From: Candidatus Heimdallarchaeota archaeon
Lineage (GTDB): Archaea > Asgardarchaeota > Wukongarchaeia > Wukongarchaeales > JBHIFL01
NCBI GenBank assembly: GCA_046761065.1
Contig: JBHIFL010000060.1
Location: 1 to 25,405 of the forward strand
Direction of reading: 5' to 3'
DNA: 25,405 nt
Positions 7,270 through 21,241 of this stretch are shown here, piece by piece. The first letter of the stretch is position 1; each line of letters opens with the position of its first letter. Below the pieces are notes generated by a model. It was not told the origin of the DNA. It saw only the letters and a program-made list of their open reading frames with translations, and made no database searches. The translations under genes and the position numbers were made by a program.

Positions 7270-8637
7270 ATGGGTCTTGAAGAAGCAATCAAGGAGTATA
7301 TCAGTAAAAGGCCAAAATCTAAGGCACTTTATGAGAAAGCAATCAAAGTAATACCTGGGGGGACCTCTCACAATCTGAGACTTTGGGGGCTCCCCTCCCT
7401 CGGCGCTTTTCCATACTATGCGGTAAGGGGCAAAGGTGCCAAAGTGTGGGATGTTGACGGGCATGAATATATCGATTACTGGCAAGGCCATTGGGTGAAC
7501 ATCCTCGGTCATGGGAACGAACAGGTAGCAGCAGCCATAAAGAAAGCATTACAACTGGGTCCGCACTTGGGCTTGGTGACGGAAGCCGAAGTTAAATTGG
7601 CTGAACTGATTGTAGAGATTGTCCCCTGTGTGGAACAAGTGAAATTTGGAACAAGCGGCACCGAAGGATGTATGTATGCGGTTCGAATAGCGCGCGCCTA
7701 TACTAAGCGGAAGACCATTATTAAAATGGAAGGAGGGTGGCATGGTCCAAGCACGGATCTTTGCTGGGCCGTTCACTTGCCATATACTAATGAGGTAGGC
7801 CTCCCGGTTCCAGACTCCGCAGGCCTCCCGGACACGATGAATGTTATTACGATTCCTTTTAATGATCCAGACATCGCAAAGCAGGTCATACGGGAGCATG
7901 CAAATGATTTGGCGGGTGTGATCCTTGAACCACTCCTCGGGGCGGGGGGAATAGTTCCTGCCGAATCGGGGTACCTTGAAGTCCTGCGGGAAGAAACTGA
8001 AAACATAGGTGCCTGTCTGATCTTCGATGAGATCGTGACTGGATTTAACCTAGCGCTTGGCGGCGCGCAAGAGTATTTCGGAGTTGTGCCAGATCTCGTG
8101 GTTCTAGGAAAGACAATGGCTGGTGGTGTTCACATTAGCGCCGTTGGAGGGCCAGAAAAGATTATGGAGGTTACAAATCCATTAAAACCGGGAGAAAAAT
8201 ATAGTGTGGTTACGATGGGTGGGGGGACTTTCTCCTCCCATCTGATATCCCTTCTAGCGGCGTATGAAACCCTTTCAATTCTGAAAGAGAAAAAAGACCA
8301 GATCTATCCACAGTTACAGACGTTCGGGGACAGGTTGCGGTCCCGAATTCGGGAAGAGATTATTCCTAACACCAGTCTCATCTTGAAATGTACTGGAGCG
8401 GTTGGGGGGATTGGATTACACTTTATGACGAAAGATATTCCGCCTATCAATGCAGAAAATATTGAAGGGAATCTCCATAAAGAGCAGCAAAAGGAATACT
8501 TCGTTCGGATGCTCAATCAAGGGATTCATACCATGCATGGTGTAGGGCGTCTGTGCACAGAGCATGGAGAGTCAGAGATTGAAACGACAATCGATGCAAT
8601 CGACACAGTGGTCAAGGCTATCGAAAGATCATCTTGA
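7270..8637 (+). CDS. Glutamate-1-semialdehyde aminomutase-like class III aminotransferase (divergent HemL paralog)
   Basis: Motifs IPGG, DVDGHEYIDY, SGTEG, ARAYT, EGGWHG, LIFDEIVTGF, LGKTMAGG and GGTF. GGAGGT ribosome-binding site upstream. Confidence 0.88.
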   Translation: MGLEEAIKEYISKRPKSKALYEKAIKVIPGGTSHNLRLWGLPSLGAFPYYAVRGKGAKVWDVDGHEYIDYWQGHWVNILGHGNEQVAAAIKKALQLGPHLGLVTEAEVKLAELIVEIVPCVEQVKFGTSGTEGCMYAVRIARAYTKRKTIIKMEGGWHGPSTDLCWAVHLPYTNEVGLPVPDSAGLPDTMNVITIPFNDPDIAKQVIREHANDLAGVILEPLLGAGGIVPAESGYLEVLREETENIGACLIFDEIVTGFNLALGGAQEYFGVVPDLVVLGKTMAGGVHISAVGGPEKIMEVTNPLKPGEKYSVVTMGGGTFSSHLISLLAAYETLSILKEKKDQIYPQLQTFGDRLRSRIREEIIPNTSLILKCTGAVGGIGLHFMTKDIPPINAENIEGNLHKEQQKEYFVRMLNQGIHTMHGVGRLCTEHGESEIETTIDAIDTVVKAIERSS

Positions 8638-8903
8638 GGTTCTACTCACCGAATAATACCCCTGAACACAGGAAAGGGGAACCTGATGCATTTCTTTTTG
8701 GAACTATGCCAAGAACATTCTGTCCTCAAAATAGACTTGGTCTAAGTGTTTCGTTAGGAAAGGGTACCATATTTCGCGACTTGAAAGGCAAGGAGCGAAA
8801 AGAAGTGTTGAGTATAAAGGCTTCCATGGCTCATACCATAATTATAAAAGTTAATTTGGAAGGGTCCTGGTTTTGTTTCATGGGCATCTAAAGGGATTTA
8901 AAT

Positions 8904-14064: not shown

Positions 14065-14437
14065 CAAGGCCCTTGGATGATGGTGTTAGTCTACAACAAG
14101 TTTGAAAACAAGAAAGAATATACAAATATAAGCATTTTAATTAAAATTAATTAATTTATTACTCTCTGATACTTACATGGAACACAAGTATCTTCATAAT
14201 AAATCTAGTTGGCAAGTATGGTTTTTTCAGGTTTCTTTAAATAGGTATTATTTTTTAGCTGTGTTTACTGAGTCTTCATTTGAAGATATCACAAAAGCAT
14301 ATAGGAATAAGAATTCTAAAGACAAATTATCAAAGAACATGCTTTATTACTCTCATCAAATGGTTATAATAGTTTTTGGAGAAAAATCAAAAGGTTACCT
14401 TTTTTTCCTACCAAAGTTATTTTTGTGGGGGAGAAAA

Positions 14438-17044
14438 ATGGCAGACCAATCGCTGCAACCCGGGTCCGAAGGTGAATCACGCGAGATTACCACAACAGAG
14501 ACCCTAGATCAATTATTAGAATCTGGAATTGTGACACTTATCTCAAAGAATGGGAACAGTTATCCGGTTTATACGGGAAATTGGGAAATCATCCCTTCTA
14601 GCCTAGGGAATTTCTTTGAAGAATTAGACTGCTATTTAAGTACAAAAGATATTGGAAACATTACGACAATCAATGTATATTTCGGGAAAAAAAATCAACG
14701 AATCGAATTGGAAGGCTTGCTACCCTATGGCATGATCTTGACCAGGCAACCAGTTCCAGACATAGGAGAATTAATAGCGCTCAATTTTACTCAATATAAT
14801 ATTGATGAAAACCTACTGACAGGTTTAATGAACGACTCAGGTGAGCTCCTTCAGCAAATGATGAGTTTTTTTCCCCAATGTGAGCAAGAGCCGCGAATTG
14901 AGCTCATCAGGTTTTTAGCTCCGGTAATAGTTGATGCCTTCCGAGAAGGCCATTTAAAGAAGCTCGTACATGAAACAACTGGTTCTGAACATTTTTTAAG
15001 AACCCATGAAGTCTGGGGATCTGGAAAACGTCTCCCGTTGAGTATGGGGGGAACTAAATCCTGGGTTTTTAAAACAGTGTATGGTACCGAAGATACTACC
15101 CTTCATTCACTTGTGAGTTGGGTCTTAGATCAATTGGCTCTCTTTATGGACGAATTCAACTCATATATGGCGCAACCAGATCGAACTTCAATCTTGGAAC
15201 GCCTTATAGAATCAGGCTTTGAAGACTTAGACACTTTTACAGGAACCCCTATTGAGTGGATAACACAAGTTGAGGAAGCAATCAAGGATTTTACGTTTAC
15301 AGAACCCCAAGAAAGGAGAGTACGGGACTTTTTCCGAAATGAAATGAAAAGATATGTAGCAAAAGTATCGATTCCTTCAGTGATTCGTGTCTACATGAAA
15401 ATGATTCATGAAAAAAAGGGCACAGACAAAGAATTCGAATTTATTGACACCTTTGGAGAGTATTTGCAACAAGCCCTCATTGAAATCCTTGATCAAGGTG
15501 CGACGGTGCCTGAAGACCCCAGAATATTTGTCCAATCTCAATTCTCGGGTATATTTACTGAATTTCGCAAGCAATATGAGATTTCGAGCCAAGGAGCCTT
15601 TAATTCTCTAGTAACGAAAACCCTTGAATCAATTCCTGAACTCAATCTTCCCCAAATATTTCTTGATTCAGGTTATCTTCGTAACTGCTTAACCAATTCT
15701 TTAACACAATTGAAAAAAAGCGTTAGTAAAAAGATATCTTACCAAAAAGAACAGTTGGCTGAAAAAACGCAAATCTTAGATGAAGAAAAGATAAAAATAG
15801 ATGAAAAACGCCAGATTCTTTCCGAAAAAGAAAATATCCTTCTGGAGAGGAGTGAACACCTACTTTCTGAGAAAGAGCGGATCAATACAAGAGAACGAAA
15901 ATTAATAGATGAGAAAGATAGATGGGATGAAAAAGAAGCGGAATTAAATACTGAAGAAATCAAACTAGAAACCGAAAAACAATCTATAATTCAAGCGCAG
16001 ATGACGTTGAATGAAAGCGTCGCCCGCTTATCCACAGAGAATCAGCAATTAATTGCTAAACAGAAGACATTAACCATAGAGAAAGGGAATGCAGAGGAAC
16101 AACTTCAACAGGCAGCAATCTTGGGGGGGGAGCCATCACACGAGAGAGAATCACTAATAAGGCAAATTCAGGATTATGAAACAGAACTAACAACTGTTTC
16201 TGAACTGAAACAGACCTTGAACAATGGACTTGCTGCTCTTGAAAAGGAACGATCAGTCTTAGATGAACGAAACAGTGTACTGACCGCGAGAGACGACATT
16301 TGGAAAAAAGAAATTGCTAAATTACATGAAGCCCGGGAAAAGTGGTCAAACAATATCCAAGCTCTCAAAAAAGAGAAAGAGGTACTAGAAGAAAATTTTG
16401 CCTCTTTGGAAAAGGATCGAACCCATCTAAATAGAGAACGCACTGCATGGGAGGCAGATCGCAGAGATTTGCTCGAAAAAGTTACCGAATTGGAACAAAA
16501 GAAGAAGACCCTAGAAGATACACAAGCTGCTCTTCATGAAATTATCAAATTCGTGAGACAAAAGATGGAGCAAGAATTCGGTGAGATTATTACTTATGAA
16601 GTAGACGAAATAGCAAATCTTGTCCAGAAGTTTCGAACAAAGGTACCTACTTATTTTGAAGAGGCTTGTAAATCTAGGGGTTCCATAAGGATTGAAGAAG
16701 AGTGGTTCACCGACATTTTCCAAGAAACCCCCCAGAACTACAAACAAACCTGCGAGTTTGAGGAGCTCAAAGAGCATTTGAGGTATTGGGCTTCTCCTGT
16801 GGGAGGGATTTATCCTCAGAGAATAGAGATCTTCTTAACCAAGTCTGGTGGCAGGAAAACTGGGTATGCGCTGTTCCTATTTCAAGATCAACGAAGCCGA
16901 TACTCGCAACAAATTGGTGCGGTTATGGCTAAAGAAATGCCTGAGGGAACCCTCTTATTACGTGATCTACGTGAAATATGCCGGCAACTCAGTGAACACT
17001 ATGATTTACTGATTAAACCGGAAACAGGTGAACAAAATGTCTGA
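14438..17044 (+). CDS. Large hypothetical protein: longin/roadblock-like N-terminus, helical middle, hinged long coiled coil, globular C-terminus
   Basis: 868-codon ORF from ATG 14438 with GGGGAG upstream. Strict heptads at 15734-16552. No transmembrane segment or canonical NTPase motif. Confidence 0.9.
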   Translation: MADQSLQPGSEGESREITTTETLDQLLESGIVTLISKNGNSYPVYTGNWEIIPSSLGNFFEELDCYLSTKDIGNITTINVYFGKKNQRIELEGLLPYGMILTRQPVPDIGELIALNFTQYNIDENLLTGLMNDSGELLQQMMSFFPQCEQEPRIELIRFLAPVIVDAFREGHLKKLVHETTGSEHFLRTHEVWGSGKRLPLSMGGTKSWVFKTVYGTEDTTLHSLVSWVLDQLALFMDEFNSYMAQPDRTSILERLIESGFEDLDTFTGTPIEWITQVEEAIKDFTFTEPQERRVRDFFRNEMKRYVAKVSIPSVIRVYMKMIHEKKGTDKEFEFIDTFGEYLQQALIEILDQGATVPEDPRIFVQSQFSGIFTEFRKQYEISSQGAFNSLVTKTLESIPELNLPQIFLDSGYLRNCLTNSLTQLKKSVSKKISYQKEQLAEKTQILDEEKIKIDEKRQILSEKENILLERSEHLLSEKERINTRERKLIDEKDRWDEKEAELNTEEIKLETEKQSIIQAQMTLNESVARLSTENQQLIAKQKTLTIEKGNAEEQLQQAAILGGEPSHERESLIRQIQDYETELTTVSELKQTLNNGLAALEKERSVLDERNSVLTARDDIWKKEIAKLHEAREKWSNNIQALKKEKEVLEENFASLEKDRTHLNRERTAWEADRRDLLEKVTELEQKKKTLEDTQAALHEIIKFVRQKMEQEFGEIITYEVDEIANLVQKFRTKVPTYFEEACKSRGSIRIEEEWFTDIFQETPQNYKQTCEFEELKEHLRYWASPVGGIYPQRIEIFLTKSGGRKTGYALFLFQDQRSRYSQQIGAVMAKEMPEGTLLLRDLREICRQLSEHYDLLIKPETGEQNV

Positions 17045-19391
17045 TAAACGATTGAGCGGTACCATGGCATTGCCAGGGGTAAGTGATCTTAAAGCAATTC
17101 AACTGCTTCAGACCTATCCACCTTGGATGGATCAAATCTGGAAGAGTAAGACACTCCCTGCAGGGTTAATCCTTGCTCTCTCTCAAACTGCGAACATTCC
17201 TAGCGATTTGGTCGAGATAATCCACTCCTACGGCTTAAAAGCCATTGAATTCATAAAAGCATATTACAAATTGATGATACGGATTCAAACAGGGGGCGAC
17301 CTGGAAATTGCGAGGGAAGAATTACGCGATTTATGGAATCGTTATCGCAATCAAATACCTATCGCCCACTTCTTCGCAAAAAGTTTGAATACCACCATCA
17401 AACAAGTCCTTTTAGGTTTAGACCGAAAAGAGAAATCAATTACTCGATCTAAAGACCGAAAAGAAAAACTCCTTGAATACCAGATCCTTCCAACTTATTT
17501 AGAGACCACAACACAGGTTCTAACACCTTGGGTCGAGATGGAAAATTCCGTTTCAACAAAGGTAATCGAACAGGAAAAGGCCGAAGGAATTCCATCGGAT
17601 GTCTTCTCCTACAGATTGGAGATCCTTGAAACTTTAACCACGGGTTCCAGCGAACTACCTGAAACATATCCCAAATTACTTAAAATTACCAACGAAAGGC
17701 TTCAAAAATGGTGCGAGAAAGGTTTTCTGAAGAAAGCACTTTTAGAAATTACTGGATTCGAAGATGTTCTTGCACATTTGCTCAAAGAATCAGGCCTTAC
17801 ATACTCCCGTCTAACCGAACTCTTAGCTGCCGCAAAAGATCTTGAACAAATGAGACCATATTTAGACATTCTTCGAGTAATGGAGGCGGTGGAAGAGCGA
17901 TTTAGGCCAAGATTTAGTCAGATTTCCATTGAGATTCAACTTAAGATGTTTCTCAAAAACGAACTCACAGCAGAGGACCTAACCTGGTTGAAAGGTCTCC
18001 TGTTTGAAGGGCAATCCAGTGAAGCTAGAATGCATCGCCTGCGATTAACTGATCAAGAAGTAATTGATAAGCTCGTGGAATATTGGAAGATAAAACAAAC
18101 CATCAGAGATCAATTTCGTATAGGGGATGCGAAATCCGAAGAAGATACGGCTCTCACTGAGAAATTTGCAGGGAAGATTTTAAATTTCGTAGTCTATAGT
18201 CCTTTAAGCACATTAAAACTCTTCACTGAATTATATGATTGGATAATCGTTCATGTTTCCGATATTGGCATAGAAATTCGAGCCATGAGGGACCAGTATC
18301 GGCGCATTATGCAAATTGCCAAAGCAATTGGAGAACTTGTAAAAGAGATCCAATTAGTTTGTACAGATATGGACTCGGAACAAATCCGAGCCCTCCTTCA
18401 TTCAGTATTTATGGATGAACAATATGTAGAAGTTCTACAAAAGATCCCCTCCACCCCATCCGCGCTGGCTCGAACAACCTTTCAGGAACATGGCCTGTTC
18501 AAGACCTATCCAAATTTAATAGCACATAATGGTTGGTGGCCCCTTGCATTAGAAACTTTGATTCAATTTGAAGAAAAAGTCAGACAAATTGGAACCGCAC
18601 GTCTTGTGGAAAAAAAGGACGAGTTTGATCTTGAACAAGCAAATATAAGCGTTGCTTCAGCTTTAATTAAACAGTTATCAAGTATTAGCGCCCAAGCTTT
18701 GTCCAAGTCTCATCAGACCACTATATTGCCTGGCTATGATACTGATTTTTCTATAAGAAAAGCTTTAAACCCTTTGGTGGAAATTGAACGAAGAACTCGG
18801 GCTAATCCGCGAGAAGTTTTACTTCAGGTATTAAATGCGGAAGTACCTATGCCTATGGGGAATCAAACTACCAAGCAAATCCTGGTAAGTGACATATTTC
18901 AGGATGATCTCGAGAAATATGAAACCTTGATGCAAGGTATTAAACCACAGACCCATATTCTTGATTTATGCGACTACTTTTCTTATGAAATTGTGAGTGC
19001 CTTAATTAGTAATATGCTGCCTCATTATGAAAGAATGGGGCTAGAGAACACTCTGGAGAATATCAGCGACGAATACGTCTCACTTCTGCGTCAAATGAGA
19101 AATTCTCTTAGGAAATCTGGAAGCCGAGATGAATGGGGGAAAATGATGACAAGTTTAATGCGTTTTTCAAAGAGTGTTGAACGCATCCTTGACAACACAC
19201 AGCAGTATCGGAATACATCTCTTACCCAACTAGCAAACTACATCCTCCAGCCGAGTAAATTTCTGCAAGGTGCCTTAAAAGATGTAGGATTCGGACGTAA
19301 GGGGATTATTCGTGAGTCCATCGAAAAAACTCTTAAGGAAGTAATGACCCTCCAGCGTCTCTTGAGACATCTTCGCTTAGCAACTATGTGA
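17037..19391 (+). CDS. Large hypothetical all-alpha protein
   Basis: ~784-aa ORF whose start overlaps the previous stop (ATGTCTGA), implying translational coupling. L/E/K/I-rich amphipathic helices, no transmembrane segment. Confidence 0.9.
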   Translation: MSDKRLSGTMALPGVSDLKAIQLLQTYPPWMDQIWKSKTLPAGLILALSQTANIPSDLVEIIHSYGLKAIEFIKAYYKLMIRIQTGGDLEIAREELRDLWNRYRNQIPIAHFFAKSLNTTIKQVLLGLDRKEKSITRSKDRKEKLLEYQILPTYLETTTQVLTPWVEMENSVSTKVIEQEKAEGIPSDVFSYRLEILETLTTGSSELPETYPKLLKITNERLQKWCEKGFLKKALLEITGFEDVLAHLLKESGLTYSRLTELLAAAKDLEQMRPYLDILRVMEAVEERFRPRFSQISIEIQLKMFLKNELTAEDLTWLKGLLFEGQSSEARMHRLRLTDQEVIDKLVEYWKIKQTIRDQFRIGDAKSEEDTALTEKFAGKILNFVVYSPLSTLKLFTELYDWIIVHVSDIGIEIRAMRDQYRRIMQIAKAIGELVKEIQLVCTDMDSEQIRALLHSVFMDEQYVEVLQKIPSTPSALARTTFQEHGLFKTYPNLIAHNGWWPLALETLIQFEEKVRQIGTARLVEKKDEFDLEQANISVASALIKQLSSISAQALSKSHQTTILPGYDTDFSIRKALNPLVEIERRTRANPREVLLQVLNAEVPMPMGNQTTKQILVSDIFQDDLEKYETLMQGIKPQTHILDLCDYFSYEIVSALISNMLPHYERMGLENTLENISDEYVSLLRQMRNSLRKSGSRDEWGKMMTSLMRFSKSVERILDNTQQYRNTSLTQLANYILQPSKFLQGALKDVGFGRKGIIRESIEKTLKEVMTLQRLLRHLRLATM

Positions 19392-19447: not shown

Positions 19448-19741
19448 GGATAATATGAATGTAAATCAGAAACCTTTAAAATTTTTCCCAAACAATGAAA
19501 GGCATTCATTTTTTACCATACATATGAAAAAAAGAATGTAGTTTTGACTTAAGATATTACTTACCATTCTTTGCATAAATAATACTAAAAGAACGAAATT
19601 TAATTAATAAAATTATTGCTTAATATTAAATAATATATTATTATGTAATAAATTAAATCTGTTAACTCTTATTTTCACTAATGATGATGAGCCACAAAAG
19701 GTAAAAGTATTGAATTGAAAAATAGTATGAGGGGTAATGTT

Positions 19742-21241
19742 GTGACACAGCCAAACGAACTTCAAAGGGTTAAGAAACAAGTTCTGGCACAAATAAAAAG
19801 CGTTGCAATGGAAATTGAGGACAACATCTTACGCCAAGAAACTGACCGGGCATTAAAGAGCTTGGAAAACTTCGAAGGAGATCCAGACCAATTTCTCACC
19901 GATGCAAACGAGATTCTAGGCAATCTAGTTCGACTGCTTGGCGAATACGATAAAAGACGCAGCGACCTGCGGGCCCTCTATGCGGATCTTGACGAGATCC
20001 AACAATCAGCAGCGACACCAGAGGGGCTTGTGGAAATGTTAGGTTGTTTAGATTATCCAGAGGCTAGATACGCTGCAATAGAACTCATTCAGGCCACATC
20101 GCTTCTAGCGCAACTATCGCGAGGTGTGTTTGTTGGAGAGTATGCCGAGTGGATCCGGGAACAGGCACGGATGGCTCTCCGAGATCTTCTAGGCACAGGA
20201 AAAGGACGCTTTCAAGCTGATATTGCAACTCTATATGGTCTAGGAGCATCCAAGATTCTCCGTGCGATCAGACGTGATCCCACAGGAGGCGAACTAAGAC
20301 AAATGATACAAGAAGAGCAAATTAATTACTCAGCGATAGTATCAGTTGCAAAACGAATAGTGGTCGGCCTCCAACAGGAAATCCTCATGCCACTCTTTCA
20401 GGAGACTGAGCGTGAAATGAGGGAGGGGCTGCTCGCCTACATTGTGCCCCCCGAGGAAAGACGTTTGGACGATACTTTAATTAGGAAATTGGCCAAATAT
20501 GTGGATCCTGAGCTTGTCATCCGATCCAGGTTGGCAACCCCATTCGAAATAACACTAAAACGGAAATCTGTCCCCCTCTTCGCAAATTTTTTAAAGCTTT
20601 CTGACGATCTTGCGAGACTGCTCAGCCTTTTCCCAACACATTTGCACCAAGCCGATCGAAAAACCATAAGCAAAACCATCAATATGATTAGAACCACAGT
20701 TAAAGAACTCCACGAGACAAGTGCTTTGCGAGATCTCAGTGATCTTAAAGATGAAGAAGAGACAGAACGGCGCTTCTTACTTCTCCTTCTACGAAAGGAA
20801 TTCCTCTCCGACTTAAGAAAACGAATCAGTTGGGTTTACGGACAAGTTTCAGAAGAGGCACCTCTCCCAACAGAAGTACGCAAGTTCTTTGAACGGGAAA
20901 TTGTTTCCTATGTGGAAGATTTCGCACAAACTGTAACTGATCTTTCAATTGAAGACCTCCAAGCAAACCTTTCAGCATGGCGTAGATGGTTGCACCGTAT
21001 TGAAGTTCAATTTAATATCTCAGAGATCCAGATGCGCCCATTTTTGAGATTTGCGCCAGACAACTTCATTGCAATGGAAAGGGTCAAATTACACCCAAAG
21101 CATCTTATGAAGGTCAATTCTATTCTGAAACGGCGAAAACGCCTAGCGGCAATAGCACGAAGGGGTAAAACGGCTGAGAACGCCTTAACCAGTTTAGAGG
21201 CATTATTTGCTTATTTAGAAAAACGGCTGAGAACACCTTAA
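19742..21241 (+). CDS. Hypothetical all-alpha protein, C-terminus affected by a tandem duplication
   Basis: ~500-aa ORF. GAGGGGT upstream favours GTG 19742. Preceded by a very AT-rich ~320 bp spacer. Confidence 0.88.
   Translation: MTQPNELQRVKKQVLAQIKSVAMEIEDNILRQETDRALKSLENFEGDPDQFLTDANEILGNLVRLLGEYDKRRSDLRALYADLDEIQQSAATPEGLVEMLGCLDYPEARYAAIELIQATSLLAQLSRGVFVGEYAEWIREQARMALRDLLGTGKGRFQADIATLYGLGASKILRAIRRDPTGGELRQMIQEEQINYSAIVSVAKRIVVGLQQEILMPLFQETEREMREGLLAYIVPPEERRLDDTLIRKLAKYVDPELVIRSRLATPFEITLKRKSVPLFANFLKLSDDLARLLSLFPTHLHQADRKTISKTINMIRTTVKELHETSALRDLSDLKDEEETERRFLLLLLRKEFLSDLRKRISWVYGQVSEEAPLPTEVRKFFEREIVSYVEDFAQTVTDLSIEDLQANLSAWRRWLHRIEVQFNISEIQMRPFLRFAPDNFIAMERVKLHPKHLMKVNSILKRRKRLAAIARRGKTAENALTSLEALFAYLEKRLRTP

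Follow-up and report, generated by a model that had tools for sequence, protein, structure and literature searches.

A conserved small alpha/beta domain in a lineage-specific coiled-coil protein of an Asgard archaeon, with a roadblock-type sandwich as a tentative candidate fold

The window analysed here is the whole stretch of 25,405 nucleotides of DNA from a Candidatus Heimdallarchaeota archaeon, and it encodes a long coiled-coil protein in which residues 19–122 are a real, conserved small alpha/beta domain. The leading single candidate for the fold of this domain is a sandwich of the roadblock type (MglB/LAMTOR2-like), an assignment that is possible but tentative, as suggested by predicted models. 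Taken as a whole, the observations are best explained if the domain is a constrained alpha/beta module in the composite head of a non-ATPase hairpin protein that docks in a scaffold, an explanation to which we would give an even chance of being right.

The open reading frame (ORF) that covers the domain runs from 14177 to 17044 on the + strand and has 955 codons, but its first ATG, at 14177, is the wrong start. Comparison with its relatives indicates that the real protein has 868 residues and starts at the ATG at 14438. In the alignment the same methionine opens the homologues P0002, P0003 and P0004 as well as the fragment P0007, and a ribosome-binding-like motif, GGGGGAG, is found at 14427–14433, 4 nt 5' of this ATG. 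Because the homologues begin there and this motif lies upstream, we place the start of the gene at 14438. The preceding 260 nt are AT-rich, and 87 codons of the ORF upstream of the real start are spurious. Automatic gene calls that take the first ATG yield a wrong product of 955 aa, of which the database entry P0001 is an example. The frame thus divides into two features:

14438 to 17044, + strand: true gene for the 868-aa coiled-coil protein (residues 88–955 of P0001), stop codon counted in; based on the methionine shared with the homologues, the GGGGGAG motif and the orthologues called as 869 aa at loci L011 and L012.
14177 to 14437, + strand: spurious 5' extension of the ORF, an AT-rich intergenic stretch that is open by chance; missing from every homologue.

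The domain had been proposed in a sequence-only reading that quoted seven short peptides. All seven are present, in order and in one frame, at 14528–14791 of the window, which corresponds to residues 31–117 of the 868-aa protein, and the numbering of the domain in that reading, approximately 20–125, is right when counted from the ATG at 14438. The segment that contains these peptides is real coding sequence under constraint and not a chance ORF. Its dN/dS against the L011 orthologue is 0.16, a value that indicates purifying selection on the domain. Residues 19–122 are also the best-conserved block of the protein, with 69% identity to P0004, the most distant homologue and the one used as the conservation reference, compared with 37–59% in the other blocks; as there are only about five close sequences, this conservation cannot single out functional surfaces. 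A foreign origin of the cluster on the basis of composition was rejected, its GC content being 0.404 against 0.420 for the genome.

Two AlphaFold2 runs were used to predict the secondary structure of the domain, one with residues 1–433 and 4 sequences (pLDDT 50) and the other with residues 12–153 and 5 sequences (pLDDT 48). The pLDDT of the domain never exceeded 60 in either run, a low confidence; as only five close sequences exist, AlphaFold2 was working nearly in single-sequence mode. DSSP assigned the same order of elements to both of these low-confidence models (pLDDT 48–50), namely alpha-beta-beta-alpha-beta-beta-beta-alpha, in which a short helix precedes strand 1 and two helices follow the sheet:

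14492 to 14803, + strand: the domain in question, residues 19–122, with a predicted helix at 23–28, strands at 29–36 and 41–48, a helix at 56–69 and strands at 77–83, 97–106 and 110–117; based on the peptide positions, the two low-confidence AlphaFold2 runs, conservation and dN/dS.
14807 to 14878, + strand: predicted helices spanning 124–147 (124–133 and 135–147) past the last strand, corresponding to the C-helix if the domain is of the roadblock type; based on DSSP of both AlphaFold2 models, low confidence.

The sequence-only reading had given the order as beta-beta-alpha-beta-beta-beta-alpha. In these low-confidence models the overall order holds, but two of its elements have to be reassigned, since RIELEG lies in a loop and DIGELIALNF, read as the closing helix, is the last strand, the closing helix being at 124–147. 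The predicted succession of helix, two strands, long helix, three strands and helix is exactly the topology that Tran et al. 2024 give for roadblock (RB) domains of the MglB/LAMTOR2 type, and longin domains have no N-terminal helix (PMC10933270). The longin order is beta-beta-alpha-beta-beta-beta-alpha-alpha. The predicted order of elements therefore fits a roadblock domain and does not refute the roadblock idea.

Two conserved stretches adjoin the domain. Directly before it is an acidic and Thr-rich sequence, ESREITTTE (residues 13–21, window 14474–14500), which stands out from its surroundings in conservation: all five family members have it, P0007 with a single Thr-to-Ser change. It could serve in binding or as a site of modification. 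After it is a poorly modelled region (residues 123–245) with a cluster of invariant polar motifs (window 14867–15052), FFPQCE (144–149), DAFREGHLK (166–174), TTGS.H (180–185) and MGG (203–205). Its conserved Cys, His and acidic residues could form a metal or active site, although invariance means little with so few sequences.

In a hypothesis built on the sequence-only reading, residues 19–150 would belong to the roadblock/longin fold superfamily as a divergent member, would dimerise and would serve as the docking site of a small Ras-superfamily GTPase, making the protein a GTPase-regulated tether or scaffold. MglB with MglA and Ragulator with the Rags are the models for such docking. We regard this hypothesis as possible but doubtful. 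The topology given above speaks for it, although other alpha/beta sandwiches have the same order of elements. The domain also resembles roadblock/LC7 domains (PF03259; MglB/LAMTOR2 type) in its size, about 105–130 residues, in its predicted N-helix, two strands, long central helix, three strands and C-helix (low-confidence models), and in its setting, a host genome rich in roadblock domains and small GTPases; Asgard examples of roadblock/LC7 domains have been solved by Tran et al. 2024 (PMC10933270). It differs from them in a 13-residue insert between strands 3 and 4 and in being fused to a helical and coiled-coil protein of 740 residues, being neither stand-alone nor fused to a GTPase.

The search for a sequence relationship to PF03259, or to the roadblock ORFs of the same genome, was negative throughout. 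With five family members as queries, no Pfam model matched the domain even at E values up to 10, and NCBIfam and PADLOC returned nothing for the domain and only coiled-coil noise elsewhere in the protein. A scan of the host genome with PF03259 gave 13 matches, none of them on this contig (C60), and a scan with the longin model PF13774 gave one sub-threshold match, on another contig. When jackhmmer was seeded with a roadblock protein of the same genome, it converged on 20 ORFs, and the present gene was never recruited, even at E values up to 10. An HMM of the domain run against all six-frame ORFs of the genome revealed neither a paralogue nor an enrichment of roadblock ORFs, and the best hits of a sequence profile search of the PDB were unrelated proteins (best E 0.058).

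In hhalign of the domain alignment against the profile of the 20 roadblock members, P ranged from 0.009 to 0.07 across settings. In the greedy setting (P 0.009) the alignment extends from end to end with the elements in register. Under one fixed protocol, however, the score is 14.9, and when 400 random windows of 142 residues are taken from the same genome this value falls at about their 90th percentile. Windows of the same protein that are entirely helical score just as well against the roadblock profile, so that the in-register alignment has no statistical weight. The C-terminal region of the protein gave about the same non-significant result as the N-terminal domain (P 0.05). An internal duplication was rejected, with P 0.26 for the N-terminal against the C-terminal domain in hhalign. 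By these sequence comparisons, support for a roadblock fold amounts to none.

Structure searches were limited by the quality of the models. Foldseek against the PDB with a low-confidence model gave nothing above background, and a wide VIA-align search with both low-confidence models likewise gave nothing above background; at such model quality the absence of roadblock or longin structures from these searches, and from the Atlas shape search below, is uninformative. The ESM Atlas has no model of this protein. A shape search of the Atlas with the low-confidence model reached TM values of 0.26 or lower, nothing above background, and of two feature searches one returned DUF2357/McrBC at 0.87–0.88, which is noise level, and the other no usable match. 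A homodimer of residues 12–153 predicted with ESMFold2 scored 0.00 with a partner pLDDT below 50, and is evidence neither for nor against dimerisation.

The components that a GTPase-docking protein would need are abundant in the host genome, which has, besides its 13 PF03259 matches, about 20 roadblock ORFs by jackhmmer and about 37 matches to Ras-like GTPases. Contig C60 carries no roadblock ORF and not one of the 37 Ras-like matches, and there is no GTPase domain among the ORFs of the window, leaving the proposed GTPase-interacting head unsupported. In Asgard archaea, GTPases and their RB or longin partners do not usually share an operon (PMC10933270), and the lack of a neighbouring GTPase is therefore weak evidence against the hypothesis. 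We consider it unlikely that the domain has a GTPase partner.

Elsewhere in the same genome (G000), a Ras-like match on contig C89 adjoins two roadblock matches (216–1791), with a third about 7 kb away (8529–8789), and five Ras-like matches occur within 14 kb on contig C51 (4484–18160), a contig that also carries a jackhmmer roadblock ORF. These two contigs are better places than the window to look for matched GTPase-regulator pairs. Among Asgard proteins, the longin- and roadblock-GTPase fusions of MK-D1 (LG and GR) share with the present protein the Asgard lineage and possibly an RB-like module in a multidomain protein; these fusions have recognisable GTPase and RB or longin domains, whereas this protein has neither (PMC10933270).

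If the earlier reading of the domain were right, the protein would resemble the longin SNAREs Ykt6, Sec22 and VAMP7, in which an N-terminal profilin-like alpha/beta domain is followed by a sequence that forms a coiled coil. In these proteins, however, the SNARE motif is about 60 residues long and is followed by a membrane anchor, whereas the present protein has a coil of about 270 residues that is interrupted at its centre and separated from the domain by a helical region of 300 residues, and it lacks both a transmembrane segment and a lipid-anchor motif. The helix predicted at the N-terminus of the domain suits roadblock and not longin, and the domain has no match to PF13774.

A sensing domain of the PAS or GAF type, with an N-cap helix, two strands, a helical insert, three strands and an exit helix, could pass a small-molecule or other signal to the helical and coiled-coil part of the protein. 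The gross order of elements in the AlphaFold2 models is the same, such domains often adjoin long helices, and GAF and phytochrome rows are present among the non-significant Foldseek rows. We nevertheless find this improbable, since no PAS or GAF model in Pfam matches any of the five family members at E values up to 10, the segment between strands 2 and 3, of about 28 residues with one helix, is short for a PAS core with its three or four helices, and an output domain is absent.

The remainder of the protein consists of an N-terminal globular region of about 430 residues, a coiled coil of about 270 residues with one break, and a C-terminal globular region:

15173 to 15727, + strand: helical bundle, residues 246–430, the sole confidently modelled part of the protein (pLDDT 70–84).
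15728 to 16117, + strand: coiled-coil arm 1, residues 431–560, from sequence and alignment; the NCBIfam and PADLOC matches here are coiled-coil noise.
16118 to 16138, + strand: Gly-Gly-Glu-Pro break, ILGGEPS, residues 561–567, near the midpoint of the coil; it holds the only Pro in residues 425–720 and is at the midpoint in P0004 also.
16139 to 16537, + strand: coiled-coil arm 2, residues 568–700, from sequence and alignment.
16538 to 17041, + strand: C-terminal globular region, residues 701–868, which probably adjoins the N-terminal region if the coil folds back; 59% identity to P0004 compared with 37–47% for the coiled-coil arms, and no family match.

By eye, the C-terminal region has a mixed alpha/beta look.

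In P0004, the JGI homologue (L010:10001–13222), the coil is 210 residues longer, 109 of the extra residues preceding the break and 101 following it. Measured between the conserved anchors that flank the coil, the Pro/Gly break of each protein is at the midpoint or no more than about 9 residues from it, at 563–566 here (anchors 431 and 713) and at 666 and 675 in P0004 (anchors 429 and 921). The arms have thus lengthened together while the break kept its central place, as antiparallel pairing of arm 1 with arm 2 predicts, and the rod is therefore probably either a hairpin or an antiparallel dimer. Of these, we favour an antiparallel hairpin as the probable form of the coiled coil, although an antiparallel homodimer would also fit the symmetric arm lengths. 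The head on a long rod of the sequence-only reading needs amending, because the rod is probably folded back; in such a hairpin the N- and C-terminal globular parts would share one head.

This layout is similar to that of SMC, Rad50 and MukB, in which N- and C-terminal globular regions are likewise split by two equal coiled-coil arms with a central break; the arms lengthen jointly in P0004, and helical proteins are encoded next door. That the N- and C-terminal regions are a degenerate ABC head of this type without nucleotide binding, and that the three-gene cluster is a decayed SMC-kleisin-like complex, is nevertheless highly improbable: the hairpin-like coil, the two downstream helical accessory genes and weak matches to SMC, to an archaea-specific SMC-related protein and to JetC point that way, but those matches are confined to the coiled coil, with 9–18 bits against cut-offs of 300–567 and no family match outside it, the Walker A, signature and Walker B motifs of an ABC ATPase are absent when the sequence is read by eye, the 430-aa N-terminal region is far larger than the N-terminal half-head of SMC, the arms are much shorter, at about 130 residues each, and ESM Atlas shape matches to AAA_15/AAA_21 clusters have a TM of only 0.26 or lower.

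The coiled-coil gene is the first of a conserved trio, of which the second and third members are as follows:

17037 to 19391, + strand: co-transcribed gene for an all-helical orphan protein of 784 aa (P0005 from Met 4), with an 8-nt overlap with the stop of the coiled-coil gene; the same succession is found in L010, L011 and L012, and there is no family match.
19715 to 21241, + strand: third orphan gene of the trio, for a helical protein of about 500 aa (P0006); homologues in close relatives only, with the same position in L012.

In none of the three proteins was an enzyme, transmembrane or ATPase family detected. Samples such as JGI 3300009034 and ENA ERZ23499022 contain the cluster. Its order recurs in L010, L011 and L012, flanked by genes for a pyruvate kinase, a methyltransferase-like protein and an alpha/beta hydrolase and followed downstream by EamA and DUF531 genes. 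In the JGI relative, an amidohydrolase gene, an IS605 OrfB/TnpB-like gene and a 186-aa ORF have been inserted upstream of the cluster, between the methyltransferase-like gene and the alpha/beta hydrolase gene (L010:6170–8934); this insertion is absent in the window.

All three proteins of the trio are confined to close relatives, with identities of 65–89%. The relatives of the coiled-coil protein are P0002 and P0003, each of 869 aa and 81% identical, P0004 of 1073 aa, and the fragment P0007. An exhaustive HMMER search of 1.84 billion representative proteins recovered only the protein's own small family (2 clusters), a word-index search found 4 homologous proteins, and a profile search of genome contigs found no further homologue. 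In scans of the order and the phylum, none of the 399 other genomes of the phylum contained the family. The supposed Asgard origin of the DNA is right, as the NCBI records for homologues of both downstream genes bear the names Candidatus Hodarchaeota or Heimdallarchaeota, and in these searches the coiled-coil protein is restricted to a narrow lineage of the Hodarchaeota/Heimdallarchaeota type.

The explanation that we prefer is the composite head. Residues 19–122 are a constrained alpha/beta module that probably forms one element of a composite globular head, not a free head on a straight rod, the remainder coming from the other N-terminal residues, up to 430, and from the C-terminal region (701–868). 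In the manner of SMC or Rad50, though lacking an ATPase, the coil of about 270 residues appears to fold back at its central Gly-Gly-Glu-Pro break, which would hold both regions at one end. We infer this head from the hairpin, as neither the domain nor the C-terminal region has a confident three-dimensional model. A possible role for the module, and the most likely one, would be protein-protein docking in a structural scaffold that would also contain the 784-aa helical protein, whose gene is translationally coupled to this one, and perhaps the downstream 500-aa helical protein. A scaffold role is what one assumes by default for orphan proteins that are long and helical, and it has little predictive value.

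At present, this work provides a well-delimited, conserved and lineage-specific orphan domain at which current prediction tools fail, together with a corrected gene start, evidence that the rod is a hairpin and a conserved three-gene unit. Roadblock domains are widespread across prokaryotes (PMC12962969), and a confirmed roadblock fold would therefore not by itself be a eukaryote-like feature; interest would rest on the architecture and the lineage and not on the fold alone. Should the domain prove to be a GTPase platform of the roadblock type carried by a hairpin coiled coil, the Asgard toolkit of GTPase regulators would gain a new architecture, and a concrete three-gene scaffold would become available in the archaeal group placed closest to eukaryotes. 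In the fullest form of this idea, which we regard as a long shot, a highly divergent roadblock-type platform in the head of a non-ATPase hairpin coiled-coil protein would allow one of the approximately 37 Ras-like GTPases to recruit or switch the three-protein helical scaffold. If so, GTPase-controlled coiled-coil tethers would have a prokaryotic counterpart in the lineage nearest eukaryotes.
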